Source: Candidatus Forterrea multitransposorum CG_2015-17_Forterrea_25_41 (GTDB taxonomy: Archaea > Iainarchaeota > Iainarchaeia > Iainarchaeales > CSSED10-239). Taken from it: a stretch of 64,000 bases of DNA. This document shows, one piece after another, positions 7,936-63,858 of the stretch (the stretch's first letter is position 1; each line of letters starts with the position of its first letter). The stretch lies in NCBI GenBank assembly GCA_009392915.1, contig CP045477.1, positions 544,001 through 608,000 on the forward strand, read 5' to 3'. The notes under the pieces are model-generated. The model was given only the letters and a program-made list of their open reading frames with translations, was not told where the DNA came from and made no database searches. Made by a program: the position numbers and the translations under genes.

Positions 7936-7945
7936 AATAACCCTC

Positions 7946-8793: not shown

Positions 8794-8964
8794 TTATTTT
8801 TTATGAGAAAATAAACCCCAAACTAAAAATATTACAAACAATACTACAAATATATAGAATAACACTAATGCAATGTTAGTTGCAACATCTGAAATTCTTC
8901 CAAAACCAAAAATTGCAGAAATTATTGCTATTACTAAAAATATAATTGCCCATCTAAGAAACAT
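8794..8964 (-). CDS. DUF1328/UPF0391-family small membrane protein, 56 aa (not in the ORF track)
   Basis: The reverse complement translates to MFLRWAIIFLVIAIISAIFGFGRISDVATNIALVLFYIFVVLFVIFLVWGLFSHKK. The start (MFLRWAIIFLVIA...FGFG) matches the conserved N-terminus of UPF0391 proteins. Confidence 0.55.
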   Translation of the reverse strand: MFLRWAIIFLVIAIISAIFGFGRISDVATNIALVLFYIFVVLFVIFLVWGLFSHKK

Positions 8965-9166
8965 ATAACATCACCTTCATATATTATAGTTGAAATATCT
9001 TATAAAGAGGTGTAATTAGCAGTTATACCTTAAATTACTAATATAAATGAATTAATAAATATAATTACTGAACATTTATTTATAAAAAACCTCTAAATAA
9101 AAATGTTTTGTTACTTAAATATATTATAACTAATTTTTTAAAAAAATAATTAATAAAGAAACACAT

Positions 9167-9913: not shown

Positions 9914-9919
9914 TATTTT

Positions 9920-10655: not shown

Positions 10656-11370
10656 TTAGTTTGGCTCTATTTTCTCTGAGCCATTTACTTTTTTCTTTAT
10701 GATCTGGAACAAATTTTTCAACTAATTTCCAGAATCTCTTAGAATGATTATGATGAATAGTGTGACAAAGTTCATGAATAATCACATAATCAATCACATC
10801 TTTTCTTGCAAGCAAAAGAGAAGTTGAAAAAACTAGTTTTTTATCATAAGAACAAGAACCAAACTTTGAAATATTGTTCTTTAAAGAAATAGATTTAATA
10901 TTTTGCTTAAAATAAAGATCATTAAAGAAGTTAACTTTATCTTTAAGTAAAGGTAAAAGTTCTTTTGAAAGAATTTTTCCAATTAACTTTGAAATTATTT
11001 TATCTTCATTTAAAAGATTATCTGGAATCTTTAAAATAATTTGGTTCTCTTTAATTTTTGCAAGAGAAGTTTTTCTGTTTTCTTTTTGAATTGTTAATAT
11101 ATATTTTCTATCAAAAATTTCAATAATCTCACCAGAAACATATTTCCTTGAAGAAATTGGAGCATATTTTTCAGGATCTTTTTTTAAATAATCAATCAAT
11201 TTTAATTTCATATTATTTATCTGCTCTTCTCTTGCCTTTTCTGAAAAAAACTTAGGGACCCTTATGTTTATGTTCCTACCAATAGACATATATGTTGATC
11301 TTCTTCTTTCAACATATATTTTTAATAAATATTCTTTATTATTAAAAATTAGTTTTTCTTCTCTTAACAT
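10648..11370 (-). CDS. YgjP/DUF45-family zinc metallohydrolase (M48-like)
   Basis: HELCHTIHHNHSKRFWKLVEKFVPD matches the DUF45 HExxH...NHS..FW signature. Confidence 0.7.
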   Translation of the reverse strand: MLREEKLIFNNKEYLLKIYVERRRSTYMSIGRNINIRVPKFFSEKAREEQINNMKLKLIDYLKKDPEKYAPISSRKYVSGEIIEIFDRKYILTIQKENRKTSLAKIKENQIILKIPDNLLNEDKIISKLIGKILSKELLPLLKDKVNFFNDLYFKQNIKSISLKNNISKFGSCSYDKKLVFSTSLLLARKDVIDYVIIHELCHTIHHNHSKRFWKLVEKFVPDHKEKSKWLRENRAKLII

Positions 11371-11402
11371 ATTTAAAACAATCTTTCTATTTTAAAAAGA
11401 AT

Positions 11403-28310: not shown

Positions 28311-29363
28311 ATGGACAAAATAATTGGAATTAAAGTAAATAAAGATAAAGCACAAGAAACAATTTCTAAAATAAAAGAAGAAAATAACTTTAATTCAAGA
28401 TATAAGATAATTAGAGAAAAAGAAAACATAATCATACCTATTAAAAAAATAACTTCAGACTTAAATAAAAATAACATAGTAGAAATTAATAATCCAGAAA
28501 AACAAAAAGAAATTGGACTTACATACAAAGAAATACTTAAAAAAGAAATAAATTCTAAATATATAGATAATCTCCCTTCTTCTTATGATATTGTAGGAGA
28601 CATTATAATAATTAACATAGAAGATAAAGAATTTCTTAAAGAATATAGTTCAAATCTAACTAATTCTCTTAAAAAAATACATCCCCACATAAAAGTAGTC
28701 TTAAACAAATCAAAAGAACATCATGGAACCTTTAGAACACAAGATTTAGAATGGATAGGTGGCGAAAATAGAAAAGAAACAATTATCCAAGAAAACGGAT
28801 GTTATTTAAAAACAGATGTTGAGAAAGTATTTTATTCAACAAGACTTGCAACAGAAAGAAAAAGAATAGCCTCTTTAGTCTTAGAAAATGAAACAATAGG
28901 AGTTTTCTTTGCAGGAGTAGGTCCTTTTTCAATAGCCATTGCAAAACTTGCAAAACCAAAAGAAATTATTTCCATTGAACTTAACCCTATTGGTGTTAAA
29001 TATATGGAAGAAAATATTTTAAAAAATCAAATGGAAAAAATAATAACACCAATAGAAGGTGATGTTAAAGAAATATCTAAAAGATATCCAAACTACTTTG
29101 ATAGAATACCAATGCCACTTCCAAAATCTGCAGAAAATTTTTTAGATGATGCAATTTTTTCAATAAAAGATAAAGGAATAATACACATTTATAATTTTGT
29201 ATCTAAAAATGAACCATTTAAAGAAATTGAAAAAATAATAAAAGAAAAAGAAAAAAAGAATAATTGCAAGATAGAAATAATATTTAAGAAAGTTATTAGA
29301 AGTTTTTCTCAAACCACTGTACAGATTGTAATGGATTTAAAAATATCTAAAGATCTTTCTTAA
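28311..29363 (+). CDS. Trm5/Tyw2-family tRNA methyltransferase (Met-10+ like, m1G37 type)
   Basis: Class I MTase core VGVFFAGVGPFSIAIAK (GxGxF). The acidic/NPPY-like motif is ISIELNP. The N-terminal D1-like region is typical of archaeal Trm5. Confidence 0.7.
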   Translation: MDKIIGIKVNKDKAQETISKIKEENNFNSRYKIIREKENIIIPIKKITSDLNKNNIVEINNPEKQKEIGLTYKEILKKEINSKYIDNLPSSYDIVGDIIIINIEDKEFLKEYSSNLTNSLKKIHPHIKVVLNKSKEHHGTFRTQDLEWIGGENRKETIIQENGCYLKTDVEKVFYSTRLATERKRIASLVLENETIGVFFAGVGPFSIAIAKLAKPKEIISIELNPIGVKYMEENILKNQMEKIITPIEGDVKEISKRYPNYFDRIPMPLPKSAENFLDDAIFSIKDKGIIHIYNFVSKNEPFKEIEKIIKEKEKKNNCKIEIIFKKVIRSFSQTTVQIVMDLKISKDLS

Positions 29364-31716
29364 GTTTAGGTTTCTTTTTAGAAGTTTTAGATTTAGAAAC
29401 TTCTTTTGGTTTTACTTCTTCTTTTTTCTTTGAAGGTTTAATTTTTGAAACTATTTTTTTAACACTTTTAATAGAATCACTTTTTTCATTTTCTAAAAGA
29501 AGTTTCTTTCTTTTCTCAAGTTCAAATATTTGTTTATCAATAATTTTCTTTTCAAAATCAACTGAAGCACTATCATAAATAGTTTTAGATTTAGAATCCT
29601 TTAAAACATCTTTATTTTTTATTCTTTCAAGCTCTAAAAGATATTTATCTCTCATTTCTTTATAAGTGAAAGGACTTATTTTTCCTTCAATTAATTTTTC
29701 ATCTAAATAACCTATTTGTTTAATTATTCCTTCCTTTGAATGATGTTTTTTAAATCTTTCAACTTCAAAGACAATTGTTAAAACCATTAAAAACAAAGCT
29801 GCAACAAATAAATAAAGATAAACATCTTTCTTCTCTTTTGAATAAATATAGATGTTTTGAGAAGAAGTTTCTTTTTCTTTACTTACATTTTCATCTTCAT
29901 CAGAAACAATAATTACAGAGCCTTGATTTGAAGAACTAATATCAATAACTAATGTTTCAAGATCTGTATTTAAATAATAATCAAGAACTATTTTTTCTGT
30001 TTCATAAAGATAATGTGCAAAATTAAGTATAGAGTTTGCAACATTTAATTGAGATTTTGCTTTTTCTTCATCTTTATTTTTATAGAAATCATGAGCATTT
30101 TTATAATAAATACCATGATCTAAGAAAGTTTTAGACCAAACATAATTTTCATTATTCATTGCACTTTGATTTCTTAAATCTTTAGTTAATTGATCATATT
30201 TAATATTAAAATCATTTAATGTAAAATTATTTTTACTGTCTTCTTGTGTTTTTATAACAGCTAAAGCAGTTGCTGAATCATAAAGTGAAGTTACATACCA
30301 TCCTCTTTGGTAATTAATCTTTGCAGCATTAAGTCTTCTTTTTAAATCTTCAGTATCTGCTATGTTTGGAGCAACTAAAATTAATTGATTTTCAACAGAT
30401 ATAATGCTTTCTTGTGCTTTTTCTTTAAAAAAGTTAGATTCTACAAACTTTAAATCATTATTTGTTGTAATTGATGCATCTAAAAAATCATTTGCAATTT
30501 CTGTCCATGCTAAAGCATAAGCATATTCTTGTATTTTTGAAAAATTATTTATAGTTTGCTTTTCTTTTAAAGATTCAACTTTATCTCTTGCCCAAGTAAT
30601 TCTTTGTCTTCCACCAACACACCATTCTAAATATTCAATTGAACAGTTGTTAGATCTGTTTTCTGTTAAAGTTATTTTTTCATCAAGTTCAGAAACTCTA
30701 AGATCAAAAATAATTGAAGAATCTGCTAAAATTGATGGATTTGTAATAATTTCTTCAACAGAGATTATATTAATATAAGCTAAAAAAGAATTATTTGCTG
30801 CTGAATAAAAATAATTATTTTCATAAAACTTTTTTGAATTTTCAACAAGTTCTTCAGAATAAGTAACTGTTGATAAAAGTGTATCTAGAACATCTAAATC
30901 TTTTATGTTAGAGGAAGATATTTTAGAATTAATTGAAGATAATTTTTCTTCAGTATTAAGAATATATTCTTCAGTTATTTTTTTTAAAGGTTCAACAGCT
31001 TTAGAATATTCAATTTTATTATAAACAAAATCATCTACTTTTTCTTCTTGAATAGAATTTACATCAATTGAAGAAACATCTTTAAAAGCATAATCTAGAA
31101 CATCATCAATAGTTGATACTTCAATAATCTTTAAACCCCATTCATTATAAGCATGCTCAATTAAATCAACTTGTTTAATTTCATCATCTTCATTAATCAC
31201 TTGAGATCTATTTCCTTGAGGTATGAAAAATAAATCAACACCTATTTCAGAAGCTTTTTTTGCTTTATAATAAATTCCACCAACATCTCCAATATATCCA
31301 TCAATTGAAATTGAACCAGTCATACTTACATTTTCAGGAACTGGAGAATCTTTAAACATTGAAATTATTAAGAGAGCCATTGCACCACCTGCAGATGGAC
31401 CATCTATAGTGTGTGCATTTGAAGTAATATCAACTGTAAAATCATACTCTTGCTTAATATCTTCTTTTATAACTGAATCTGCAACTGCAATTGCATTTTT
31501 AAAAGATTCTTGTGTTGAAGAACCTACTATTGATTCATCTATTGAAGAATATATTTTTCCAGTACCAGGTATAATTTTTACATTTAATTGTGCATCTTTT
31601 GCACTTGTTTCACCAGATACTGCGAAAATCTTCATATTAGCATCAGAAACTAATGCAAAAAGATTAGGCATTAAAAGTATTAAAAATAATAATATTGCAA
31701 TTGATTTAATTTTCAT
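29347..31716 (-). CDS. Secreted/membrane-anchored protein with a Lon-like S16 peptidase domain
   Basis: N-terminal signal peptide (MKIKSIAILLFLILLMPNLFAL). The Lon proteolytic domain IDGPSAGGAMALLIISMF...VSMTGSISIDGYIGDVGGIYYKAKKASEIGVDLFFIPQGN carries the catalytic Ser in DGPSAG and a downstream Lys. A large middle domain is followed by a C-terminal TM helix and a Lys-rich tail. 789 aa. Confidence 0.65.
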   Translation of the reverse strand: MKIKSIAILLFLILLMPNLFALVSDANMKIFAVSGETSAKDAQLNVKIIPGTGKIYSSIDESIVGSSTQESFKNAIAVADSVIKEDIKQEYDFTVDITSNAHTIDGPSAGGAMALLIISMFKDSPVPENVSMTGSISIDGYIGDVGGIYYKAKKASEIGVDLFFIPQGNRSQVINEDDEIKQVDLIEHAYNEWGLKIIEVSTIDDVLDYAFKDVSSIDVNSIQEEKVDDFVYNKIEYSKAVEPLKKITEEYILNTEEKLSSINSKISSSNIKDLDVLDTLLSTVTYSEELVENSKKFYENNYFYSAANNSFLAYINIISVEEIITNPSILADSSIIFDLRVSELDEKITLTENRSNNCSIEYLEWCVGGRQRITWARDKVESLKEKQTINNFSKIQEYAYALAWTEIANDFLDASITTNNDLKFVESNFFKEKAQESIISVENQLILVAPNIADTEDLKRRLNAAKINYQRGWYVTSLYDSATALAVIKTQEDSKNNFTLNDFNIKYDQLTKDLRNQSAMNNENYVWSKTFLDHGIYYKNAHDFYKNKDEEKAKSQLNVANSILNFAHYLYETEKIVLDYYLNTDLETLVIDISSSNQGSVIIVSDEDENVSKEKETSSQNIYIYSKEKKDVYLYLFVAALFLMVLTIVFEVERFKKHHSKEGIIKQIGYLDEKLIEGKISPFTYKEMRDKYLLELERIKNKDVLKDSKSKTIYDSASVDFEKKIIDKQIFELEKRKKLLLENEKSDSIKSVKKIVSKIKPSKKKEEVKPKEVSKSKTSKKKPKLKKDL

Positions 31717-32266: not shown

Positions 32267-33043
32267 TTATTCTCTTTTTGCAGTTAATGTTTCATTACGT
32301 GCAGGCATTATGTAAACAAAATAATCTCCCTCTGAAACTTTATCTCCAGTAGATTTTTCAATCCAATAAACAGTAGAGTCATCTTCTGATTGACTTAAAA
32401 AACTTATAGATCCGTGAACCACATCACCTGTTTGATATTCTCCAGCTCCATTAAGAATAGGTTGAGAGATTCCAGTATCATTTTCTAAAGTTAAAGTATA
32501 AGTTTCTGGCTCAGAAGATTCTGCTTGAAAAATTGCAGTAACTGATTTATTTTGAGTCATTGTAACGTCACAATTTATAGCAGCAGTATCACAATTTCCA
32601 GTCCATCCTTGAAAAGTATTTCCTTCAGATGCATTTGCATTTAAAGTAACTGAAGTTCCTGAAGAATAATTTTGAGAACAATCAGTTCCACAATTAATAC
32701 CTACTGGATTTGAAGTTACAGTTCCATTTCCAGAAACATTAACAGTTAATGTATAATTTTCAGGATCTGGTTCATCTGGTTCATCTGGTTCATCTGGTTC
32801 AGGATCTTCTCCTCCAGGATTAGGATTAACATTATCTATTTCTTCAACTTGAGAAGAATCATTTAAATCTTCAATAAACCCATCAACTGTTGAATCTATT
32901 CCTTCATTAATTTTGTCAGATTGACTTACTTTCTCATTTGAAAAATTAATAAAGGTTGTTGCAAGAACAATTGTACCTAAGACTAAAACACCAACTATAA
33001 TTACCATTTCTAAAGAAACTTGAGCTTTTTTATTTTGAATCAT
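32267..33043 (-). CDS. DUF361-type archaeal type IV pilin-like protein with Flg_new-like repeats
   Basis: Class III signal peptide MIQNKKA|QVSLEMVIIVGVLVLGTIVLATTF (Q at +1, E at +5). A (PDE)n linker. Repeats with GINCGT(D/N)CS...GTSVTL...G(N/H)xFxGW, as in Listeria-Bacteroides (Flg_new) repeats. Confidence 0.7.
   Translation of the reverse strand: MIQNKKAQVSLEMVIIVGVLVLGTIVLATTFINFSNEKVSQSDKINEGIDSTVDGFIEDLNDSSQVEEIDNVNPNPGGEDPEPDEPDEPDEPDPENYTLTVNVSGNGTVTSNPVGINCGTDCSQNYSSGTSVTLNANASEGNTFQGWTGNCDTAAINCDVTMTQNKSVTAIFQAESSEPETYTLTLENDTGISQPILNGAGEYQTGDVVHGSISFLSQSEDDSTVYWIEKSTGDKVSEGDYFVYIMPARNETLTAKRE
32764..32800. repeat. 9-bp tandem repeat (about 4 units, TCTGGTTCA) encoding a (PDE)n linker in the pilin-like gene
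   Basis: ggatctggttcatctggttcatctggttcatctggttcagg is seen directly. It encodes EPDEPDEPDEPDP on the minus strand. Confidence 0.8.
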
Positions 33044-33072
33044 ATTTATTCTTATTTTATATTTTTATAATA

Positions 33073-35190
33073 TTATTCTAAGCCACCATCAGTAATAGTC
33101 CAATTATAATTATTAATTAATATATTTTTTGCATCAACTGCAGAACTATCATAATTAACTGCTGTTGCACCTAATGTAACATTACTTTTTAAATTAGTTA
33201 AATTTGACCATCTAATTAAAATATTAGAATAATTTACAGTAGATAATGCATAATCAAACATATGAGCCATATCAGTTACATTTGAAACATCCCATGCACT
33301 AATATCTTGATCAAAACAAATATCAGAAATACTAAAGAAACATTGAAACATTCTGTTCATATTTGTAACATTTGAAACATCCCACATACTTATATTTTGA
33401 TTAAATGAATAATTATTATAAAACATAGAAGACATATCAGTTACATTTGAAACATCCCAATTATTCAATGGTTGATTAAATCTAGTACATCTAAACATTG
33501 CAGCCATATTAGTTACATTTGAAACATCCCAATTATTTATAGAAGTATTAGTCCATGAAAATACACCATTATTTGGAGGACTACTTACACTACAATTTTG
33601 ATAACCACTAAAAGTTCCTGCTAAATTTGTAATTCCGTTTAAATCAGGAACATCAGTTGCAGTTACAACTAAATTTGTAGCTCCAGAGAAATAATATCCA
33701 CTATTTCCAAATTTTAAATTACCCCATTGACTAATTTCAGTTAATTTTAATTTATCTCCAGAATTATTAAACCTAAAACCTTCAATAAAACCTGTTATGA
33801 TTACATCATATATCCCAGAACTTGAATATGTGTGAGTTTTATCAGGATCACTATAACTTGTAACCTCTGATGTAGTTCCATCTCCCCAATAAACTTTAAA
33901 ATTATAATTATTACTATAAAGAGAAGCAGAATCTAAAGGTAATGTAATTTGATTTGCATTTGAAGAACCAGTACTAATTTTTGTAGTATCCCATTTAGAT
34001 ATAAATGCATCTGAAGTAGGTATAAAATTTGCAGTTAAATTCACATTACTTGAAGGCATTGTATAACTAAATGAAGGATCTGTACTTACTACAGTACCAT
34101 TTTGATCAATCCAATTTACATAAGAAAATTCAGCAATAGAAGAGACAGATATATTTGCAACATCTCCAGGATTATAATTTCCTGCACCATTTAAACTAAT
34201 ATTTACTGAATCTGGATTTTCAATTAAATTTAAATTATAAGCAACAGGCAAACTAAAAGTTGCAGTTACATTTTTAACTTCAGTCATAGAAACAGAACAA
34301 CTAATTTGAGGTCCAGAACAATCCCCAGACCATCCTTCAAAAACATATCCTGAAACTGGAGTTGCATTTAATTGAACAGATTGTTGATCAGGAAAAGTTG
34401 CAGAACAGTTTGTTTGAGATTCTAAACAATTAATTCCAGAAGGATAAGTTTCAACAGTTCCTCCAATTGTTTTAGTTAAATTTAAAGTATAACTGTTTGG
34501 AAGATTAAAAGTTGCAGTTACATTTCTTGCTTGAGTCATGGAAACTGTACAAGTAAGATTAGTTCCTGAACAAGCACCTGACCATCCACCAAAACTATGA
34601 CCAGTAACAGGATTTGCAGTTAAAGTAACTGAAGTGCCTGAAGAATAATTTTCAGAACAATTAGTTCCACAATTAATACCAGAAGGATTTGAAGTCACAG
34701 TTCCATTTCCCGCACCACTTAAAGATACATTTAAAGTATAAGTTGATGGAGCAGTTGATGAAAAATTTGCAGTTAAAGAAGTATTTGAATTTAAATTAAA
34801 AGTATATGGATTTGTGGAAAGTGAACCTGTTGGAGTTGTCCAATTATTAAAAGTATAACCTGAAAGAGCAGTTGCAGTTGCAGTAACTGAAGTTCCACAA
34901 CTAAAAGTTCCAGCTCCTGAAACAGTACCACCTGCTGGAGGGTTTGAAGATAAAGTTAAAACACAATTACTACCAACACCTGAAATTGGTTCATAATCTT
35001 CAGGATTTGTTAAATCTTTAATAAAACCATCAATTGTTGAATTTGTAGCAGCATCAATTTCTCCTGCTTGATCTACTTTTTCATTTGTAAATCCAATTAA
35101 AATAGTTGCTAAAATAACAGCACCTAAAATCAAAACACCAATAATAATTATCATCTCTAAAGAGACTTGAGCTTTTTTACTTTTATTCAT
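33073..35190 (-). CDS. Large DUF361-type pilin-like adhesin with Flg_new-like repeats and BspA/DUF285-like C-terminal repeats
   Basis: The class III signal is MNKSKKA|QVSLEMIIIIGVL. The ORF-track start at 35265 adds a 25-aa Lys-rich extension that is probably untranslated. Four repeats have the form ...NPSGINCGTNCSENYSSGTSVTLTANPVTGHSFGGWSG... C-terminal 25-aa repeats are NWDVSNVT(N/D)M(A/S)xMF. Many NxT/S sequons. Confidence 0.7.
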   Translation of the reverse strand: MNKSKKAQVSLEMIIIIGVLILGAVILATILIGFTNEKVDQAGEIDAATNSTIDGFIKDLTNPEDYEPISGVGSNCVLTLSSNPPAGGTVSGAGTFSCGTSVTATATALSGYTFNNWTTPTGSLSTNPYTFNLNSNTSLTANFSSTAPSTYTLNVSLSGAGNGTVTSNPSGINCGTNCSENYSSGTSVTLTANPVTGHSFGGWSGACSGTNLTCTVSMTQARNVTATFNLPNSYTLNLTKTIGGTVETYPSGINCLESQTNCSATFPDQQSVQLNATPVSGYVFEGWSGDCSGPQISCSVSMTEVKNVTATFSLPVAYNLNLIENPDSVNISLNGAGNYNPGDVANISVSSIAEFSYVNWIDQNGTVVSTDPSFSYTMPSSNVNLTANFIPTSDAFISKWDTTKISTGSSNANQITLPLDSASLYSNNYNFKVYWGDGTTSEVTSYSDPDKTHTYSSSGIYDVIITGFIEGFRFNNSGDKLKLTEISQWGNLKFGNSGYYFSGATNLVVTATDVPDLNGITNLAGTFSGYQNCSVSSPPNNGVFSWTNTSINNWDVSNVTNMAAMFRCTRFNQPLNNWDVSNVTDMSSMFYNNYSFNQNISMWDVSNVTNMNRMFQCFFSISDICFDQDISAWDVSNVTDMAHMFDYALSTVNYSNILIRWSNLTNLKSNVTLGATAVNYDSSAVDAKNILINNYNWTITDGGLE
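33271..33540. repeat. Four copies of a roughly 75-bp periodic repeat (core agttacatttgaaacatccca) within the large adhesin gene
   Basis: Near-identical 25-30 nt cores at about 33271, 33364, 33436 and 33509. They encode the repeated NWDVSNVTxMxxMF units. Confidence 0.75.
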
Positions 35191-35279
35191 ATCTTTATCC
35201 ACTTTTTTTACTTTTTTAGATTTTATTATTTTTTTAGATTTAATTTTTTTAACTTCTTTTTTCATAAATATCTTTTCTC

Positions 35280-35663
35280 TTAATTAAAATTTGCTGTAAT
35301 ACCAGTATTAAAATTTAAATCAAAATAGAATATTTCAGTTTTGCTCATAATAGCTCCAGAAGAATCTTTCCAGTTTAAGAAACTATGACCTGTAGCAGGA
35401 ACAGCTTCTACTCTTACTTGAGTTCCACAAGCAAAACTACCATCTCCTTTAACAGTGCCAGCATCTTGAGGATTTACTGAAATTACTAGATTACAAATAA
35501 AGTTATCAACAATTTCATCTGTTTGTTTATTAATTGCATTAGATTGATCTGCTTTTGAAGAAGACATATTAATAACAATTGTTGCAAGAATAATTGTCCC
35601 TAAAACTAAAACACCAACGATAATCATCATTTCTAAAGAAACTTGAGCTTTTTTATTTATCAT
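35280..35663 (-). CDS. DUF361-type type IV pilin-like protein (short, with one Flg_new-like unit)
   Basis: MINKKA|QVSLEMMIIVGVLVLGTIILATIV, plus ...GTVKGDGSFACGTQVRVEAVPATGHSFLNWKD. Confidence 0.7.
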   Translation of the reverse strand: MINKKAQVSLEMMIIVGVLVLGTIILATIVINMSSSKADQSNAINKQTDEIVDNFICNLVISVNPQDAGTVKGDGSFACGTQVRVEAVPATGHSFLNWKDSSGAIMSKTEIFYFDLNFNTGITANFN

Positions 35664-39905: not shown

Positions 39906-41342
39906 TTAAATATCTTCTTTAAACTTATAATTTATAACACTTGAAGTAAAAGTAGGTCTGAAAAGTAACCTTATAGCATCTCTATTTGGATAATAAATAA
40001 CCCCATCATTATCTTTAATTGAAATTATCTTTACAGAAGATAAATTACCATCTCTAAAATCAACTTCAGATTTTGAAGTTGTTAAAAAATTAAGAGTACT
40101 ATTATCTTTAATTATTTGTTGGATACTACTTCCTAAATAAATATTATTAAAAACAAAACTTAATTCAGGGAAAACAACTAAAACATCATCTTTTAAATTT
40201 AAAGAAATATCTTCAACAATACCTTTTATAAAATAAGGAGCAATAGGATCTTTTGGATTAATATTTATTAATTTTACAGAACCAATGTTTTGATATCTTT
40301 GTTTAAATAATACAGAAACATTTGTTTTATTAAAAAAAGAACCATATTTTTTATCTAAAACTATTAATTTTGATAAAACTCTTAATTTTTCAAAATCATT
40401 GATTTCATTTGTAATTTTTATAGCTTTAACTTTTGTAATTAAATCTTTAATTGTTATAATATCTTTTGAAAAAACTTGATTAATTATTTTTAAAGAAACA
40501 TCTTTAAATGAAAAAATATTTACAAAAGCATCAAAAGGAATTTTTCCTAATGGCATTTTAATATCAGAATAATTTATTTTTTTAACAGGAAACCCAAAAG
40601 GATCCATATTAAGTTCAAATTTATCTAAAACTTCAGAATTCTGTTGAGGATAACCAAGACTTATAAAATTATTAACAGTATCAAAAACAATAACTGTTTT
40701 TGAAGAAAGCAAATAATTTTCACAAATAATTTTAGATATAAATAATCTATCATCAAGATTTGGACCATAAACAGAAACACTTTTTAAATTTGAAAGAGAA
40801 GTTGTAACAGTAATATCTTTCTTTTTACCTAAAATTAATTTATCTAAAGGAGTTGAAGATTTAAAATCTAAAGACAAAGGCATATTTGATAAAGATTTAA
40901 TAACTTCAGGATCTGAAAAGAAATAATCATTATCTCTTTTTTCTGCAAGTTTTAAAGAAATTAATTTTATATTATAAGATTTAACAACAGAAATTACAGA
41001 ACCTACCATCTTGTTTAGTTCAGTTATTTTTTTATCTACATGATAAGATAAAGTATTAATGTCTACATATTCTGTTTCTGTATGTAGTAATAAATATTTA
41101 AAATTATTTTTTGAACCTATGTCAATATGTTTTTGATAAACAATAGCTGGAAATGGAAGAGTATTTGCAAAAGTTTCTAAATCTCCTTTAACTACAAATA
41201 CCTTATATACTTGTATGAGTACATTAGTCTTATCTCTTAGTCTTAAAAAAGACACAAAAATATCATCCTTATACAAAATGTTTAATTCTTGATTTCCGTA
41301 TTTTCCTTCATATAAGGTATTCCATGTGTTTAAAGAAATCAT
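39906..41342 (-). CDS. Hypothetical protein (478 aa)
   Basis: Long ORF with good coding periodicity. No Walker motif or other signature recognised. Confidence 0.4.
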   Translation of the reverse strand: MISLNTWNTLYEGKYGNQELNILYKDDIFVSFLRLRDKTNVLIQVYKVFVVKGDLETFANTLPFPAIVYQKHIDIGSKNNFKYLLLHTETEYVDINTLSYHVDKKITELNKMVGSVISVVKSYNIKLISLKLAEKRDNDYFFSDPEVIKSLSNMPLSLDFKSSTPLDKLILGKKKDITVTTSLSNLKSVSVYGPNLDDRLFISKIICENYLLSSKTVIVFDTVNNFISLGYPQQNSEVLDKFELNMDPFGFPVKKINYSDIKMPLGKIPFDAFVNIFSFKDVSLKIINQVFSKDIITIKDLITKVKAIKITNEINDFEKLRVLSKLIVLDKKYGSFFNKTNVSVLFKQRYQNIGSVKLININPKDPIAPYFIKGIVEDISLNLKDDVLVVFPELSFVFNNIYLGSSIQQIIKDNSTLNFLTTSKSEVDFRDGNLSSVKIISIKDNDGVIYYPNRDAIRLLFRPTFTSSVINYKFKEDI

Positions 41343-55407: not shown

Positions 55408-55489
55408 GCAGGGGTACCCAAGTGGTCAAAGGGGCATGGCTTAGGACCATGTGCTTAGTGCTTCGCAGGTTCGAATCCTGTCCCTTGCA
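55408..55489 (+). tRNA. tRNA-Leu (anticodon TAG), class II with a long variable arm
   Basis: Acceptor GCAGGGG/CCCTTGC. Anticodon stem CATGG/CCATG with loop CTTAGGA. Variable-arm hairpin TGCTTAGTGCTTCGCA. T-arm GGTTCGAATCC. Discriminator A. Confidence 0.8.
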
Positions 55490-55503
55490 CTATTTTATAG
55501 AAG

Positions 55504-57590: not shown

Positions 57591-58436
57591 GTGAGAAATA
57601 TGAAGAACATTTTAGAATATATAGATCAATTATTAATAAAATCAAGAGAGATTTATAGATTAATGCCAACTCCACTCTATAAACTTGAAAAAAAAGAACT
57701 GATTGATAAATTAAATGAAATAAAAACAAGCCTTGAAAGCTTATCAAAAGAAATCTTAGAACTTAATAAATATACAGTAATACAATATTCTTCAGAAGTT
57801 AATTTTTCAAAAATGGATCTATTTTATCAAAACTTTTTAATGATTTCTAATAATATTAATTCTCAAATGTTTTTAGAGATTAATAAAAAAGAAATAAATC
57901 ATGATTTAATAAATATTAAAGAAGCAATTACAAGACCACAGATTTTTTATGATATAGAAGAACAATTAAAAAATGAAATCACATTATTTTTAAGTTTTTT
58001 AGAAGAAGTTAAAACAAAAGTAAAGTATAAATATGTAGATTTATCTAATCAAAAAAAATCTATTGAAGAACTATTAAGAATAATTCAAGATAAAGAAGAA
58101 GATAATAAACTACTTAGGAAAAAAGTACAAGATTATAAGTGGCTAGAATCAAAAGAAAGAGCAAAAGAATCATTAATAACAAATCTTGAAAATGAATTAA
58201 TTAAAAAAATAAAAATTAATGAAAAGAAAAGTGTCTTATTAAATGTACATTTACTTAAAGTTGAAAAAGAAATTACAGAAATGTATAAAGTAATTAAAAA
58301 GCTAACACTTGATATAGATGAAAGTGAAAAAGCAAATCTTGAAAAAGAAAAATTAGCATTAGAGCTTATAAAAGAACTTAAAGACGAACTTTTAAGTACA
58401 AGATATGCATTATCAAAAGTATATGAGGGTAAATAA
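57591..58436 (+). CDS. Coiled-coil protein (hypothetical)
   Basis: 281 aa, heptad-rich, no TM helix. Confidence 0.4.
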   Translation: MRNMKNILEYIDQLLIKSREIYRLMPTPLYKLEKKELIDKLNEIKTSLESLSKEILELNKYTVIQYSSEVNFSKMDLFYQNFLMISNNINSQMFLEINKKEINHDLINIKEAITRPQIFYDIEEQLKNEITLFLSFLEEVKTKVKYKYVDLSNQKKSIEELLRIIQDKEEDNKLLRKKVQDYKWLESKERAKESLITNLENELIKKIKINEKKSVLLNVHLLKVEKEITEMYKVIKKLTLDIDESEKANLEKEKLALELIKELKDELLSTRYALSKVYEGK

Positions 58437-59918
58437 ATGGCTGAAAAGTTTGATCCATTTTCATCAGGAAGCACAAATTATTATAATCCAACTTCTGAAA
58501 AGAAAAAAAGTAATGGACTTGTAACATTTATACTTGTGATAATATTAATTGGACTTGGAATTTATTATGGTTCAAACTATTTATTTCTAAATAAAGTAGA
58601 TGTAACTTTTAATATTAAGAACACAGAAGGAGAAACTATTCCTGCAAACATACAAATTTCAAAAAGTCCTATGTTTACAGATACAGTTCTTAATTTACAA
58701 AATGGAACTACAGGAGAATTGAAGAAAGGTAGCTATTATTATCAGATACAAGCAACAGGATATAAGTTATATAAATCAAGTACAGAAAAAGAATTTAAAG
58801 AAACATTTAATGAAGACTTTGAACTTGAAAAAAATATTAGTCTAAAATTAGAAAAAATTACTTTTCCAGAAAAAGTTTTTAAAAACCAAATGGCAATTCT
58901 TTCAATTGAAGTTATAAATACTTCAGAAAAAGAAATATATACTCCATCAAATATCATTGTAGAAGGTGATATTGAAGAATGGAATTTTGAATATGTTGAT
59001 AATTATCAAGAAGTAATATCTGTTGAAGATATAGTTATTCCACCAAAACAAAGAATGAATATAAATTTAAGATATATTGTGGACGATACTGGAGATAAAG
59101 AAAATGATATTAAGGTAAGAATTAAATATAAATCAGATTCTAAAAAAACTAGTTTTGAAATCATAGAAATTCCAGAAATCACAATAAAAGCAGATATTGA
59201 AAAAACAATTGAAAGTGGAAGTAATAGTAATTTTACAATAAATATTGGAAATTCTAAGAATAGCAGTCCTATTTCAGACTTAAAAATAGCACTTGAAATT
59301 GAAAGTGAAGAAAATGAAACTGTAGAAGAATGGTTTAATTATGATAAAGGGAACATTGTAATCCCTGCTAAAAGAAATACAACTTTAAGTCTTTCAGTTT
59401 CAATACCTCAATATGCAAAAAGTGATACACTTAATGGAAATTTAATTTTTTCAAGTTCTGCATTTGATGAAAATAAAGTTATTCCAATAAAAATTACAAT
59501 TGAAGAACCAAGCATTGATTTTGATACAAAATTAAGTACAAGTGAAACAGAAATTAATTATGATGTAAATAATAACACTACTGATAAAAAATATATTACT
59601 TTAACTTTAGATAATAAAAGTTCAATTGATATAGAAATTGTAAACATATCTATTCTTAATTTAGATCCTGACAAAAAAGATTGTAATAACTACATATATA
59701 TTTCAGAAAACTCACTTCCAGATAAAAGAGTTATTAAAAACACAAAACCAGAAATACCAATTACAATATTTGCAAAAGATCCTTCATTAATTGGAGATCC
59801 AATAAATAACACCAGGATTTGTGGAATAAATGTAGAATACAAACATCCTTTTAGAATAGAAGAAACAATTAATATTTCTAAAAATATTATAATAAATATT
59901 GAAGAAAAAACATCATAA
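58437..59918 (+). CDS. N-terminally anchored extracellular protein (hypothetical surface protein)
   Basis: Single TM after KKKSNG (LVTFILVIILIGLGIYY), beta-rich ectodomain with NxT/S sequons. It is contiguous with the upstream gene (stop/start TAAATG). Confidence 0.4.
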   Translation: MAEKFDPFSSGSTNYYNPTSEKKKSNGLVTFILVIILIGLGIYYGSNYLFLNKVDVTFNIKNTEGETIPANIQISKSPMFTDTVLNLQNGTTGELKKGSYYYQIQATGYKLYKSSTEKEFKETFNEDFELEKNISLKLEKITFPEKVFKNQMAILSIEVINTSEKEIYTPSNIIVEGDIEEWNFEYVDNYQEVISVEDIVIPPKQRMNINLRYIVDDTGDKENDIKVRIKYKSDSKKTSFEIIEIPEITIKADIEKTIESGSNSNFTINIGNSKNSSPISDLKIALEIESEENETVEEWFNYDKGNIVIPAKRNTTLSLSVSIPQYAKSDTLNGNLIFSSSAFDENKVIPIKITIEEPSIDFDTKLSTSETEINYDVNNNTTDKKYITLTLDNKSSIDIEIVNISILNLDPDKKDCNNYIYISENSLPDKRVIKNTKPEIPITIFAKDPSLIGDPINNTRICGINVEYKHPFRIEETINISKNIIINIEEKTS

Positions 59919-59938
59919 ATTAAAAGAGTTAATATAGT

Positions 59939-61771
59939 ATGGAACACATAGATTGGATTGTATCATTTGTAATTTTTATATTTGTAATACTTGCAATAAT
60001 TACAGCAATACCAAGATTTCTTCCAGACAATTTAAAACAAGAAGATATATATACTTCAAAAATAGTTTATTCTCAATTAACTGAAAATATTGATAAATAT
60101 ACAATATATTCAGATAATAATTATCAAGATATATTTTTTTTAGAAGACATTAACAAAGGAAGAGCAATTTCTAATTTTATAATTGATGAAAATATTCTAT
60201 TTTTAGATTATATTAAAAAATCAAATTTTTATTATTATGATGCAAATAGTTCTTTTGAAAAACCAAAAACTATTATTTTTAAAGAAAAAATAATTGATGA
60301 AAATAGTTTAGTTAATTTTCAATTAGATCAAGGACAAATAATTAGCTTTAATGGAGAAGCATATGCCTATCAAGAAACTACATTAAAAAGTATAGAAAAT
60401 TATTCTAATGTTTATTTTGAGTATGTTGTAGAACCACAAGACATGAATGTTTATTTTAATTATGCAGATGTTAATAATTACTCACTTTGTTCAATAGATC
60501 AAAATCAGCTTAAATTATATGATCAAAATAGCTCTGGAAGTTATTTAGTAGATTTTGTAGATGTTAATTTTGATGAAGATCAGTATTTTATAACATTAAA
60601 AGTAAATACAAACTATACTGGAGAAGTTAGTTGTGTTATTGAGGATTATATAGCTGAAAATAATACACAAAGTTCTATTAATAGTGGGCAAATAATTTTA
60701 AAAAATATTAATGAACAATTTATAGATAGCTTTGAAATATACAAGAATAATTATCTTGAAATTAACTCAAATACAATCAATACAAATTATTTTGATCTAG
60801 AAATTACTGGAAACCAAATTGATGCAAATATTTTTGAAAATAGAAATCTTCTTGGAAATATAAAATTAAGTTTTGAAAATAATTTAGATTATAGCTTAAT
60901 TGAAAACAATAATCCAGGAATAATAAAAGATAGTTTATCAAAACAAAAATTAGTTATTTTTCCAAACACAAATCAATTAATAACAGTTATTGAAAATGAA
61001 GATGTTAATTTTGAAGTATCACAAGGACTTGAAATTAATAATTATGATTATGAAATAGAATATTTAACAGATTATTATACTTGGATTAAAATGGATGTTC
61101 TTGCAAATTCTCAAAAAACAGTTTATTTAAATAAAATTCAAGGATATCAACCAGAGAATGATTTTTCAAAAGTTTATGATAGCCCAACTCATCCAAGCAC
61201 AACAGTTACAAACCAAGGAAGTGGATTATTTAAAATTGATATAGATAATACTGGAGGATTAGAACTTTCAGATTATGAAATTAGAATAGATAATAATATT
61301 TTAAGTCTATCATCTACAACTGAAAGTTTATTGATTACAGATTCTAATTTTACAAATGTTAATAAAATAACACTTAAAAACAAAACAGAAAATAAATATG
61401 TAATTATTGAATTTTTAGATAAAGATAGAAATCTTAAAGAATGTACAGTAAATATTATAGATGATGGTTTTAATATAAATTGTACAAGCAAAACATATTT
61501 AAAAATAAAAATTACAGACACAACAGAACAAGAAAAAAGTAAATATTTAAAGAGTTCTGAAAAAATAATTACTAAAGAAAAAATAGATGATGTTAATCTA
61601 GATGTAATTGATAACTATAATTACTTTATTAAACTATATAATAATAAAGAAAACGTAGAAATTGGAAACTATGGATATTCAGGAGATTTTAAAATTCTCG
61701 AAAAAATATCTAAATATTTAAATGAAAAAGGACAAGAAGAAATAGTTAAAGTTTTAATAAAACCTAACTAA
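59939..61771 (+). CDS. N-terminally anchored large extracellular protein (hypothetical surface protein)
   Basis: TM at residues 5-25, 610 aa, N/S/T/Y-rich ectodomain. Confidence 0.4.
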   Translation: MEHIDWIVSFVIFIFVILAIITAIPRFLPDNLKQEDIYTSKIVYSQLTENIDKYTIYSDNNYQDIFFLEDINKGRAISNFIIDENILFLDYIKKSNFYYYDANSSFEKPKTIIFKEKIIDENSLVNFQLDQGQIISFNGEAYAYQETTLKSIENYSNVYFEYVVEPQDMNVYFNYADVNNYSLCSIDQNQLKLYDQNSSGSYLVDFVDVNFDEDQYFITLKVNTNYTGEVSCVIEDYIAENNTQSSINSGQIILKNINEQFIDSFEIYKNNYLEINSNTINTNYFDLEITGNQIDANIFENRNLLGNIKLSFENNLDYSLIENNNPGIIKDSLSKQKLVIFPNTNQLITVIENEDVNFEVSQGLEINNYDYEIEYLTDYYTWIKMDVLANSQKTVYLNKIQGYQPENDFSKVYDSPTHPSTTVTNQGSGLFKIDIDNTGGLELSDYEIRIDNNILSLSSTTESLLITDSNFTNVNKITLKNKTENKYVIIEFLDKDRNLKECTVNIIDDGFNINCTSKTYLKIKITDTTEQEKSKYLKSSEKIITKEKIDDVNLDVIDNYNYFIKLYNNKENVEIGNYGYSGDFKILEKISKYLNEKGQEEIVKVLIKPN

Positions 61772-61932
61772 ATCATTAATTTAAATATTAAAACCACAAC
61801 TACAAAAGCAATAGATAAACCAACTACTAATTCTGGTGAAAGCTTATAACCACCTAAACTTTCATTAAACTTCATAATACCAATAGCACTACTTGGTCCT
61901 TGACTATTACTCTTCATTTGCTTTAATTTCAT
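61768..61932 (-). CDS. secG: Preprotein translocase subunit Sec61beta/SecG (archaeal), 54 aa (not in the ORF track)
   Basis: The reverse complement translates to MKLKQMKSNSQGPSSAIGIMKFNESLGGYKLSPELVVGLSIAFVVVVLIFKLMI. The SAGLIRYxDE...K.xPE.V.G...AFV pattern of archaeal Sec-beta is present, with a single C-terminal TM. Confidence 0.6.
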   Translation of the reverse strand: MKLKQMKSNSQGPSSAIGIMKFNESLGGYKLSPELVVGLSIAFVVVVLIFKLMI

Positions 61933-62040
61933 AAATATTACACCTCTAATAATAAATATATATATAGAAAACTATTAAATAACTTACTCTTATATAATTT
62001 ATGTAAGAACAGTTAAAAAAAATTAAAAAAAGGATAATAA

Positions 62041-63018
62041 ATGATTAATAAAAAAATGATTTGGAAAACTGCAGTAGTTATAATAATGATAATTATTCTA
62101 CTATATCTTTTAGTATGGGCAGGAACAGTTAGATGTAAATCTATTCCTGGAATGTGTTCTATTTACTGGGGAACCCAAACATTAATTACTGGAAAACAAC
62201 AACCAAGCATATTAATTGTTTATAATCCATCAGATATAGAAGGTCTTGGAAATCCTTATCTTCTAGAGAAAACAATAAGAGATAATAAAATAATTGGAAT
62301 GAATGTAAGACTTGAAAATATAAATTATTTAAGTGAAGAAAAACTAAAAAATGAAGCAATGGTAATAGTTACAAAATCTAGAAAAATATCTACACCAAAG
62401 CTTGAAATGTTTATTAATTATGTATCAACTGGTGGTAGACTTATTTGGGTCGGAGATGCTGGAATAGAAAAAGAAACAAACTTAGATGTTCTTGCAACAA
62501 AAGGAGATATTGAAGGTTCATTTGATTCTAATATTGTAAGTGGCTGGGCAAGACTTGATTCTGAAAACTATATTTTAAGATTTGATAATTTCTTAGGAGT
62601 TAATTATCTTAATAATTATTGCCAAGTAAAAGATTGTCAAGATAAAATATATAAAGTTGCTAATGGTATTGAACTTAATTATAAAAAACCAATTGCTAAT
62701 AATGGAGTACTTATACCAAGTTCAGAACATCGTATGGTCTATGGACTTAGAAGTTATCTTGAAGTAAAAGATGATTTTGCAATTGTACAAACACTAAAAC
62801 CAATGACAACTCCTTTAAAATTAGATTTTGGATCAACACTTTTTGATTCAGAGAAAGTATCTTATGGAAATGAAGAAGGAGTATTCCCTTTAATAATATT
62901 AAGTAATTCAAATAAAGTTGCATACTATGCAATGCCTCCAGAATATTTAATTGAAGATGATGATAAAGAGAAATATTATTCAATAATTGAAAATATGATA
63001 TATGGTATGGTTAAATGA
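62041..63018 (+). CDS. N-terminally anchored extracellular protein (hypothetical)
   Basis: TM at residues 8-28. 325 aa. Confidence 0.4.
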   Translation: MINKKMIWKTAVVIIMIIILLYLLVWAGTVRCKSIPGMCSIYWGTQTLITGKQQPSILIVYNPSDIEGLGNPYLLEKTIRDNKIIGMNVRLENINYLSEEKLKNEAMVIVTKSRKISTPKLEMFINYVSTGGRLIWVGDAGIEKETNLDVLATKGDIEGSFDSNIVSGWARLDSENYILRFDNFLGVNYLNNYCQVKDCQDKIYKVANGIELNYKKPIANNGVLIPSSEHRMVYGLRSYLEVKDDFAIVQTLKPMTTPLKLDFGSTLFDSEKVSYGNEEGVFPLIILSNSNKVAYYAMPPEYLIEDDDKEKYYSIIENMIYGMVK

Positions 63019-63024
63019 TAATTT

Positions 63025-63396
63025 ATGATTAAATCTGTAGAAGCTGTTATTGCTGTAATGATTCTTTTTTTATTCATAATAACATTATTTTCAAGCTATA
63101 CAAAAACAGAAACTAGAGAAAACTTAATGATTGAAAAAAGTTCAGAAATATTTTTAATCAATGCACAAAATAAAGAATTTAGAGATTATATACAAGAAAA
63201 TAAAGGTCAAATAATATATAATGAATTATATGGTTATATAGATAGTAATTATTCAATAAAAATATGTGATTTTTTAGAAGAAAATGAAAACTGTGCTGAT
63301 TTTGGAGATACAGTTCCTGATAAAAAAAGTTTAAGCTCTTTTAATTATTATTTTTATGATATTAATAAAACTTTAAATATAATAGTGTGGTCTTAA
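63025..63396 (+). CDS. Small pilin-like protein with a possible class III signal peptide
   Basis: MIKS|VEAVIAVMILFLFIITLF has K at -2, S at -1 and a hydrophobic stretch. 123 aa. Confidence 0.4.
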   Translation: MIKSVEAVIAVMILFLFIITLFSSYTKTETRENLMIEKSSEIFLINAQNKEFRDYIQENKGQIIYNELYGYIDSNYSIKICDFLEENENCADFGDTVPDKKSLSSFNYYFYDINKTLNIIVWS

Positions 63397-63399
63397 AAA

Positions 63400-63858
63400 A
63401 TGAAAGAAAAAGGATTTACATACATAATAATTGTTGTTTTTATTATGATATTTGTAACTATGCTTTTTTTAATCTCAAAAAACATAAACTATTCAAATAA
63501 AATAAAACATTTAGTATCAAACTATAAAACTGAAATCAACTATCTTTCAGAAAATAACTTAATAGATGTAAATAGTTTAGATGAGTTTAATATAAATTTT
63601 AAAGAATTTATAAAATCAAATAACTATAATAGTAAAGCTTGTGGAATATATTTTGATGGTAATAAATACATTCTAAGTAATTATCTTGATGCAAATTATA
63701 CTCTGATACAAGAAAATCAAACTATTGAAATATTAGCAGAAAGTGTTTCAGAAGATATCATATTTGGAAATTGTGAAATGGATATTTCTTTAGAAAATTC
63801 ACTTTCTTTTTATATAGAAATTTATAATGATTCTGAGAAAAGTATATATAAACAATAA
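63400..63858 (+). CDS. Pilin-like protein with a class III (prepilin-type) signal peptide
   Basis: MKEKG|FTYIIIVVFIMIFVTMLF has KG at -2/-1 then a hydrophobic helix, the archaeal PibD/FlaK-type substrate pattern. Confidence 0.45.
   Translation: MKEKGFTYIIIVVFIMIFVTMLFLISKNINYSNKIKHLVSNYKTEINYLSENNLIDVNSLDEFNINFKEFIKSNNYNSKACGIYFDGNKYILSNYLDANYTLIQENQTIEILAESVSEDIIFGNCEMDISLENSLSFYIEIYNDSEKSIYKQ

Follow-up and report, generated by a model that had tools for sequence, protein, structure and literature searches.

Gene Layout at the Right End of the Window

The DNA analysed here (the window) is a 64,000-nucleotide stretch from an AT-rich (GC about 23%) archaeon of the Iainarchaeota/Diapherotrites (DPANN). 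A block of six plus-strand open reading frames lies near its right end, between positions 57591 and 63858, and all six are present where a sequence-only reading of the window had placed them: cc281 (57591..58436, 281 aa; the JGI start at 57600 gives 278 aa), p493 (58437..59918, 493 aa), p610 (59939..61771, 610 aa), p325 (62041..63018, 325 aa), p123 (63025..63396, 123 aa), and p152 (63400..63858, 152 aa). They fall in a run of hypothetical proteins with NCBI locus tags GW835_00630-00655. The description of the block as lying on one strand with minimal spacing holds for the strand of the six frames and for gaps of 0, 20, 6, and 3 nt, but not for a 269-nt gap between p610 and p325. This gap contains a minus-strand gene for the housekeeping translocon subunit Sec61beta (61768..61932; Pfam PF03911, E 5e-7; NCBIfam NF002318, E 1.8e-9, under its cutoff), which is divergent from p325 and convergent with p610, the two 3′ ends overlapping. 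Therefore, the block comprises at least two transcription units. A further plus-strand gene, cc116, begins at 63926, with ATGs at 63932 and 63938, and is cut by the window end at 64000; the open reading frame that had been noticed near 63936 thus exists, and it encodes a coiled-coil protein of 112–116 aa.

Five of the six proteins, all except cc281, have a single N-terminal hydrophobic segment each, in agreement with the N-terminal anchors that had been proposed for p493, p610, and p325. Dense NxS/T sequons had also been ascribed to these three proteins. An excess is seen in p493 only (13 sequons vs. 7.9 ± 2.4 in shuffled sequences), p610 having 9 against 10.0 expected and p325 having none. 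Nor is p325 beta-rich, as had been thought, since it models as an alpha/beta fold. When the six window proteins and the downstream neighbours were searched against Pfam and NCBIfam, the only significant matches were those of Sec61beta and of a T2SSE protein, and no member of the block matched a pilin family in either collection. Scans of the 55–64 kb interval for Rfam families, tRNAs, and repeats returned only a tRNA-Leu and chance AT-rich repeats.

The Downstream ATPase

It was correctly noted in the sequence-only reading that neither an assembly ATPase nor a platform gene lies inside the window, and it was suggested that such genes may be found beyond position 64000. When the region was followed rightward on a 663-kb JGI contig, this proved true of the ATPase but not of the platform. 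A gene for a T2SSE-family ATPase of 675 aa (L001 10905-12932) directly follows cc116, on the same strand as p152, and there is no platform gene within 10 kb of it. The ATPase matches PF00437 (E 1.4e-31), its best solved relatives are Archaeoglobus fulgidus GspE (PDB 2OAP, E 1.8e-92) and FlaI, and its Walker A/B, Asp, and His boxes are all intact. The cytoplasmic coiled-coil protein cc116 has orthologues directly 5′ of the ATPase in every in-clade locus and also 5′ of the ATPase in outgroup loci (E 1.7e-29, 8e-21, and 4e-16). No Pfam or NCBIfam family is matched by cc116, p123, or p152; for p123, this includes the Class_IIIsignal family (PF04021).

p610, p123, and p152 in a Conserved, Putative Type IV Filament Module

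The p610 protein starts with a conserved M-[EDQ]-[YH]-[IV]-D-W sequence that is followed by a hydrophobic helix. The length of the protein is variable; homologues of 514 to 1096 aa are present in all in-clade loci, with DUF2341 in 6 of 15 members and Laminin_G_3 in 2 of 15, the window copy having neither. An orthologue of 2211 aa in one outgroup locus (L053) begins with MHYIDW, contains FG-GAP and LamG domains, and lies directly upstream of a p123-like gene. From these sequence features, p610 is a putative large pilin-like protein or adhesin of a type IV filament module.

The N-termini reported for the two small proteins, MIKSVEAV... for p123 and MKEKGFTYIII... for p152, are correct, and each is conserved in about 28 distinct homologues. 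In p152, a site of the form [KR]-[GA]↓[FY]-[TM]-[YF]-I-I, with predicted prepilin-type cleavage at the arrow, is conserved in 21 of 21 aligned homologues, and the protein has two to four conserved cysteines. In p123, an alignment of 22 homologues shows an invariant, nearly leaderless M-[IT]-[KR]-S-x-E start followed by a hydrophobic helix, as well as an FR motif, a Cys pair, and a D-x-N-K-T sequon. Both proteins had been taken for class III signal-peptide proteins. This is upheld for p152, but p123 has no G/A at −1 and thus does not carry a standard class III signal peptide. Neither p123 nor p610 has a [KR][GA] site for cleavage. Compared by eye with the QxSxE motif of DUF361-type pilins, p123 has I/T rather than Q at +1, and its Ser+3 and Glu+5 fall into place only on the assumption that the leader is Met1 by itself. 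We regard p123 as a putative minor pilin or membrane-anchored component.

The comparison covered about 35 in-clade loci and five loci from more distant Iainarchaeota (the outgroup). In the former, the order p610/Sec61beta/p325/p123/p152/cc116/ATPase is fixed, with ATPase identities of 56–93%. The in-clade synteny extends to the housekeeping genes for MetAP, L11, Spt5, and FtsZ, and so it is weak functional evidence on its own. In the outgroup, where the ATPases are 42–57% identical, the order is a large LamG/FG-GAP protein, a p123-like gene, a p152-like gene, a cc116-like gene, the ATPase, and two T2SSF genes, with canonical KG↓VSPLIA pilins alongside. The p123 orthologues in the equivalent position are found with HMM E-values of 1.8e-15, 5e-13, 1.6e-9, and 4e-4, and those of p152 with 3e-18, 1.6e-10, 3.9e-10, and 1.7e-7. 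BLASTP comparisons with the L053 copies give 27% identity over 129 aa for p123 (E 2e-10) and 25% over 175 aa for p152 (E 9e-8), and the homology of both proteins to their outgroup copies is full-length. The conserved module consists of the large pilin-like, putative adhesin p610, p123, p152, cc116, and the ATPase. Accordingly, the proposal of a surface-appendage locus is supported for p610, p123, and p152, which keep their order beside the ATPase and two T2SSF genes in distant Iainarchaeota, but not for cc281, p493, and p325. As for the features of a TFF locus, a secretion-superfamily ATPase is encoded with pilin-like genes, and p152, by its sequence-predicted site, supplies at least one class III signal peptide protein; a T2SSF platform stands beside the ATPase in the five outgroup loci and not here.

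We propose that an archaeal type IV filament system, pilus-like in kind, has its assembly-core cluster here, made up of p610, p123, p152, cc116, and the T2SSE ATPase, and that the other genes of the block are neighbours. We put the probability of this reading at roughly three in four.

Might p123 and p610 instead remain at the base of the filament? They could be uncleaved pilin-derived anchors acting as a stator or base in the manner of ArlF/ArlG (FlaF/FlaG), with only p152 and the distal pilins described below entering the filament. ArlF and ArlG arose by duplication of filament subunits and act as stators (bioRxiv 10.64898/2026.04.22.720090). As small proteins with an uncleaved pilin-like N-terminal helix that are encoded in an assembly operon, they are a possible model for p123 and p610, whose N-termini are conserved and have no [KR][GA] site and essentially no leader. 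In addition, the p152 and p123 profiles show a weak similarity (hhalign probability 25%) that suggests paralogy; in this alignment, the Ser of p123 is in register with the −1 Gly of p152. On the other hand, no sequence match to ArlF/ArlG was found, and there is no archaellum context. If Met1 is the sole leader, Ser+3 and Glu+5 of p123 would correspond to a mature QxSxE N-terminus, which fits a filament-core subunit, and the variable length and lectin-type domains of p610 suit a displayed adhesin better than a stator. For these reasons we consider a stator role unlikely, and we retain the assembly-core cluster with p610 as putative adhesin and p123 as putative minor pilin or anchored component.

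The Neighbouring Genes

The first protein of the block, cc281, is a predicted cytoplasmic coiled-coil protein, as had been proposed: it has no TM segment, 58% of its residues are E/K/L/I/Q, and it has no Pfam or NCBIfam match. Among the roughly 35 related loci, it accompanies p493 in about 10 and is never seen apart from it. The p493 protein is single-pass: a 25-aa cytoplasmic tail bearing an FDPF motif is joined by one TM segment to an ectodomain built of Ig-like beta-sandwich repeats. Its family has 55 representatives among 1.84 billion, all of about 490–515 aa, and the domain matches within it include CarboxypepD_reg (15 of 48), NPCBM_assoc (14 of 48), and also FixG_C, PEGA, and CARDB. None of the outgroup pilus loci has a member, and no T2SSE gene lies close to a distant one. 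In a distant locus (L056), a coiled-coil protein that is unrelated in sequence to cc281 again precedes a p493 homologue. We conclude that cc281 and p493 are not part of the pilus but an independent two-gene module, in which a cytoplasmic coiled coil is paired with a surface protein of Ig repeats.

The p325 protein is an N-terminally anchored ectoprotein with four conserved cysteines, in two conserved Cys pairs. Its ectodomain is modelled as a class I glutamine-amidotransferase-like (GATase1; ThuA/GIFT-like) fold, with Pfam scores far below cutoff. Sequence identity to GIFT/ThuA-like members is only 7–15%, there is no catalytic triad, and the anchor is at the N-terminus, not at the C-terminus as in the GIFT/ThuA-like proteins GldG, IFT52, and OST48/Wbp1. 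This is a small family (31 matches in a word search) that appears limited to DPANN metagenomes; a match of p325 and the ATPase in a bacterial locus (L048) was false and was left out. The divergent Sec61beta/p325 pair is also seen in a distant locus (L009). The gene is co-oriented with p123 and lies 6 nt upstream of it. A role for p325 as a pilus component was considered and, as far as an ancestral component is concerned, rejected: none of the five outgroup pilus loci has p325 or Sec61beta, and distant p325 homologues sit elsewhere, unlinked to any T2SSE gene. On the modelled fold, p325 would be a non-catalytic GATase1/GIFT-like ectoprotein, one that entered the cluster together with Sec61beta in this clade. 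It now appears to lead a p325-p123-p152-cc116-ATPase transcription unit.

These observations bear on the proposal of a single surface-appendage or S-layer locus that spans all of 57591-63858 and whose six proteins act jointly. The single strand, the tight spacing within cc281/p493/p610 and within p325/p123/p152, the N-terminal anchors on five consecutive proteins, and the fixed order among the closest relatives all speak for it. However, some 25 of the roughly 35 related loci have no cc281 and p493 at this position, a flippase gene lies between them and p610 in two loci (L005 and L029), and the L056 pair occurs without pilus genes; p325 and Sec61beta are missing from the outgroup loci, and the minus-strand Sec61beta splits the block. 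As to an S-layer, Pfam and NCBIfam find no S-layer domain in the six proteins, which are all N-terminally anchored or cytoplasmic. Comparative synteny thus largely refutes the one-block arrangement, to which we give little credence, and the assembly-core cluster with unrelated neighbours is preferred.

Where Is the Platform?

When about 40 in-clade loci were searched with an HMM built from the outgroup T2SSF genes, no T2SSF platform turned up within 10 kb of the ATPase, and none was found in the 64-kb window. Following Makarova et al. 2016 (PMC4858521), a conserved polytopic neighbour, m325, was considered as a possible diverged platform of the TadC type, and was rejected: there is no T2SSF match in 21 members, the hhalign probability against the outgroup T2SSF is 1.2%, no PDB profile is matched, and its AF2 model (pLDDT 81.6) matches the fold of an ECF S-component. 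A Peptidase_A24 prepilin peptidase was likewise not found when polytopic proteins of the 64-kb window were scanned with Pfam; the scan identified only a ZIP transporter, a DUF63 protein, a Na/Ca exchanger, and a GT22-like protein.

The window does contain candidate subunits. Three class III signal-peptide proteins of 258, 730, and 127 aa are encoded on the minus strand at 32267..35663, with the N-terminus KKA↓QVSLEM.... The Class_IIIsignal model (PF04021) matches residues 4–22, below cutoff, and Flg_new_2 and DUF285 domains are also present. In the DUF361/Epd-type pilin motif QxSxExxxL, the Q stands at +1, directly after the cleavage site (PMC2910488), and the start A↓QVSLEMVII fits this QxSxE type when compared by eye rather than with the DUF361 model. 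These proteins are likely filament subunits or decorated pilins, which the same ATPase would serve.

It may be argued that the clade has lost the T2SSF pair and that its strongly conserved FlaI/GspE-type ATPase uses another membrane partner, or p325 with the leaderless p123 and p610. Such a type IV filament machine would have no recognisable platform and would in part do without prepilin peptidase. The argument rests on absence at the locus and in 64 kb of flanking sequence, and we find it improbable.

That the cluster is an archaellum (motility) locus is very hard to sustain and was rejected: several homologous ATPases were named "FlaI" by JGI annotators and the top NCBIfam match of the ATPase is the FlaI equivalog, but this match reaches 323 bits where the cutoff is 550, the closest solved structure is that of A. 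fulgidus GspE and not FlaI, the neighbours include no match to archaellin, FlaH, FlaF/G, or FlaCDE/X, and the outgroup platform is split over two genes, unlike ArlJ.

Comparison with Known Systems and a Proposed Mechanism

The closest parallels to the assembly-core cluster are archaeal type IV filament systems with two platform genes, among the clades of Makarova et al. 2016 (PMC4858521). Sivabalasarma & Albers 2026 (bioRxiv 10.64898/2026.04.22.720090) describe such an architecture, with an ATPase, pilins, and an adhesin as well, for system 1 (Epd/Tad-like) and subsystem 4A, and it is found in DPANN. The present cluster resembles them in its FlaI/GspE-family ATPase, its several small proteins with class III-type N-termini, and its adjoining large adhesin-like protein with beta-propeller or lectin domains. 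Likewise, the nearest outgroups have two half-size T2SSF genes after the ATPase, and candidate pilins of the DUF361 type (QxSxE) are encoded in the same genome. It differs from them in that this clade is without both platform genes at the locus and has the GATase1/GIFT-like ectoprotein and Sec61beta inserted, and in that the "leader" of p123 is one to four residues, with no G/A at −1. We see the locus as a rearranged, previously unannotated addition to the archaeal type IV filament systems already known. In the literature on Diapherotrites pili, nothing specific was found.

A large adhesin gene beside small pilin-like genes and an assembly ATPase also recalls the minor-pilin and PilY1 complexes of bacterial T4aP/T2SS. 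The p152 sequence K-G↓F-T-Y-I is close to the bacterial G↓FTLIE, although p152 is without Glu at +5. Unlike in T4aP/T2SS, the envelope is archaeal, there is no secretin, and no sequence homology to FimU/PilVWX/GspHIJK was found; the likeness to T4aP/T2SS tip or priming complexes is a functional one, by analogy.

By the same analogy with T4P/T2SS minor pilins, a pathway can be envisaged. The p152 protein would insert into the membrane via its N-terminal helix and be cut after K-G by a prepilin peptidase. It may join p123 and the large p610, via their hydrophobic N-terminal helices, in a priming or tip complex, on which the ectodomain of p610, lectin-like (LamG/DUF2341-type), would be exposed and serve in adhesion. 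Driven by the hexameric ATPase, which cc116 may tune, the major DUF361-type pilins, whose genes lie at a distance of 25 kb, would be extracted and polymerised.

Significance

DPANN archaea are thought to depend on contact with a host, for which type IV filaments are the leading candidate structures. The run of "hypothetical proteins" at this locus now has a proposed role, and the genes that are merely nearby are separated from four unannotated ATPase-linked families found across Iainarchaeota, namely the lectin-type adhesin with the D-W N-terminus, p123, p152, and cc116. Detectors that need an ATPase and a platform side by side would probably miss this clade. Finally, the p123-type proteins offer a clean test case of whether a pilin-like subunit can function with essentially no leader peptide.

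Gene content of the block and of the DNA beyond the window

The six plus-strand ORFs that the sequence-only reading placed at 57591–63858 are all present there: cc281 (57591–58436), p493 (58437–59918), p610 (59939–61771), p325 (62041–63018), p123 (63025–63396) and p152 (63400–63858), each named by its length in residues. As had been claimed, cc281 fits a cytoplasmic coiled coil, with no hydrophobic segment and 58% E/K/L/I/Q, and each of the other five has a single N-terminal hydrophobic segment. None of the six proteins has a significant match in Pfam or NCBIfam. The ORFs are co-oriented, but they do not make up an unbroken one-strand block: a minus-strand Sec61beta gene (61768–61932) lies between the p610 and p325 genes, overlapping the 3′ end of p610, and there are therefore at least two transcription units. 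The dense NxS/T sequons hold for p493 only (13 observed against 7.9 expected from composition); p610 has 9 against 10 expected and p325 has none. Nor is p325 beta-rich, being an alpha/beta protein.

The block is adjoined by archaeal housekeeping genes, namely those for an archaeal-type GlyRS, Pus10, MazG, an Ogg-type glycosylase and Sec61beta, and a tRNA-Leu gene (anticodon TAG; 55408–55490, plus strand) lies directly upstream of the Pus10 gene. The G+C content of the window is ~23%, falling to 18–19% at 4001–10000. This low-G+C stretch may be a mobile-element remnant, as may two large ORFs that lack a Pfam match (1223–2791, 522 aa, and 3796–5013, 405 aa) and a 478-aa ORF at 39906–41342 with a weak ERF-recombinase match (E 0.0017).

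The exact p152 sequence occurs in numerous assemblies, one of them a 663,621-bp JGI contig, and this allowed the contig to be extended to the right. Assembly genes had been suspected past 64000, and two pilus-related genes do follow: cc116, encoding a coiled coil of 112–116 aa, and a gene whose 675-aa product has the T2SSE domain of secretion ATPases (PF00437, E 1.4e-31). The downstream genes are therefore not unrelated to pilus assembly, and the proposal of an appendage locus stands on this point. Among solved structures, the ATPase is closest to A. fulgidus GspE (E 1.8e-92), FlaI (4e-65) and CpaF, and it retains intact Walker A, Asp-box, Walker B and His-box motifs. Its NCBI name is “Flp pilus assembly complex ATPase component”; every neighbour is labelled “hypothetical protein”. 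An archaellum is rejected, as the NCBIfam FlaI equivalog scores 323 bits against a cutoff of 550. Residues 1–190 (10905–11480 in comparison locus L001) form a Lys/Glu-rich N-terminal extension, predicted to be helical, ahead of the part that aligns with afGspE and FlaI; its length differs among relatives, whose whole proteins span 647–906 aa. After the ATPase the strand switches to m458, which has a signal peptide and a C-terminal anchor, the polytopic m325, methionine aminopeptidase and the small surface protein p169; further on come L11, Spt5, SecE and FtsZ.

Synteny and the ancestral module

A search with the ATPase recovered six loci from genomes and 36 from metagenomes, and from these family HMMs were built. 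With these, a single fixed gene order is seen in ~35 loci whose ATPases are 56–93% identical: p610, Sec61beta (minus), p325, p123, p152, cc116, ATPase and then, on the minus strand, m458, m325, methionine aminopeptidase and p169. Ahead of p610, cc281 and p493 occur in only ~10 of the ~35, and two loci carry a Wzx-like flippase between this pair and p610; three have additional genes between p610 and Sec61beta. Since the housekeeping genes are just as syntenic within the clade, this order alone says little about function.

The decisive comparison is with outgroup Iainarchaeota, found by protein search at 42–57% ATPase identity (contigs L053, L054, L055, L057 and L058). In all five, the ATPase follows an orthologue of cc116 (E 1.7e-29 to 4e-16) and is itself followed by two half-size T2SSF (platform) genes, which correspond to the N- and C-terminal halves of ArlJ/FlaJ. 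Directly upstream, in four of the five, lies a gene for a very large protein (1093–2211 aa; FG-GAP, LamG), followed by orthologues of p123 and p152 and in some by a further pilin; alongside are canonical KG|VSPLIA pilins. Pairwise alignment to the L053 copies is full-length for p123 (E 2e-10) and p152 (E 9e-8), while that of p610 to the large L053 protein, whose N-terminus is likewise M-H-Y-I-D-W, is limited to the N-terminal 51 residues of p610 (E 8e-8). The genes for p325, Sec61beta, cc281, p493, m458 and m325 are in none of the five loci. From outgroup gene content and order, the ancestral module is thus a large adhesin-like protein, p123, p152, cc116, the ATPase and a split platform. This agrees with archaeal type IV filament system 1 and subsystem 4A, which have two platform genes, an ATPase, pilins and an adhesin and are present in DPANN (bioRxiv 10.64898/2026.04.22.720090). 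The surface-appendage idea holds for half of the block; nothing in the analysis backs an S-layer.

With HMMs made from the T2SSF genes of the outgroups, neither the window nor any in-clade locus yields a match. The polytopic m325 was considered as a diverged TadC and rejected: no member matches T2SSF, a PDB profile search was empty, and the hhalign probability against the T2SSF alignment of the outgroups is 1.2%. With all of these tests negative, the platform pair is gone from the ATPase locus in this clade. Because the ATPase is strongly conserved, we expect the platform pair and a prepilin peptidase elsewhere in the genome.

Genes outside the module

Homologues of p325 at 36–37% identity adjoin Sec61beta, Sua5 and Alba genes rather than pilus genes, so p325 and Sec61beta look like an insertion into the pilus cluster. 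The same divergent pair (61768–63018) is found in locus L009 (9658–10948), with p325 37% identical, and a shorter p325 paralogue (278–289 aa) lies two genes downstream in L009 and L011. The predicted fold of p325 is class I glutamine-amidotransferase-like (GIFT-like), that of OST48/Wbp1. The family has no invariant His and no nucleophile Cys, and p325 is therefore probably non-catalytic. A link of Sec61beta/p325 to secretion or glycosylation is conceivable. The 6-nt spacing suggests that p325 is now co-transcribed with p123, and it may thus have a recruited role at the pilus cluster. The two genes also share a reading frame, a stop codon and two further codons apart (63016–63027), which is probably coincidence; the spacing varies among relatives (104 nt in L004).

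An exhaustive search gave 55 representatives of the p493 family, uniform in length: single-pass surface proteins of ~500 aa with Ig-like repeats (CarboxypepD_reg, NPCBM_assoc, CARDB, PEGA) and a conserved [FY]DPF motif in the cytoplasmic tail. In the distant locus L056 (2455–5105), a member at 22% identity is directly preceded by a cytoplasmic coiled-coil gene, with no detectable sequence similarity to cc281, among housekeeping genes. Since the pairing recurs there, cc281 and p493 are an independent pair.

Pilin-like proteins and proposed mechanism

All p152 homologues have a short basic leader ending in K-[GA], then [FY]-[TM]-[YF]-I-I and a hydrophobic helix, a predicted site of textbook prepilin type. 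In all p123 homologues, an initial M-[IT]-[KR]-S-x-E leads into the hydrophobic helix with no G/A cleavage residue; also common to them are an FR motif, a pair of Cys residues and a D-x-N-K-T sequon. Profile alignment to p152 places the Ser at −1 (hhalign probability 25%). Alternatively, with Met1 as sole leader, Ser+3 and Glu+5 agree with the mature DUF361 motif QxSxE (PMC2910488). The p610 homologues (514–1096 aa) keep M-[EDQ]-[YH]-[IV]-D-W at the N-terminus and carry DUF2341 in six of 15 and Laminin_G_3 in two of 15. The anchor is thus conserved and the lectin-type head variable, which fits a displayed adhesin.

Three canonical class III proteins (258, 730 and 127 aa; 32267–35663, minus strand) share the N-terminal sequence …KKAQVSLEM[VIM]II.GVL, a DUF361-type signal (QxSxE; KKA|QVSLEM), and have Flg_new_2/List_Bact repeats and DUF285 in their ectodomains. 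They presumably make up the “first” appendage locus, which has no ATPase gene beside it. Adjacent to this locus, a gene at 29347–31716 (minus strand) encodes an apparent extracytoplasmic protease of Lon-like type, a 789-aa protein in which a Lon_C protease domain (E 5.6e-17) is accompanied by a signal peptide and a C-terminal transmembrane segment.

We propose that p152 would be cleaved and would join p610 and p123 in a complex at the tip or for priming. The ATPase may be modulated by cc116, and the main substrates would be the DUF361-type proteins at 32–35 kb. In the main rival reading, p123 and p610 would instead be uncleaved anchors like ArlF/G. The system as a whole belongs, in rearranged form, to a known kind of filament system and is built from unannotated families, with three features specific to this clade: displaced platform genes, a leaderless pilin-like p123 and an inserted GIFT-like ectoprotein.
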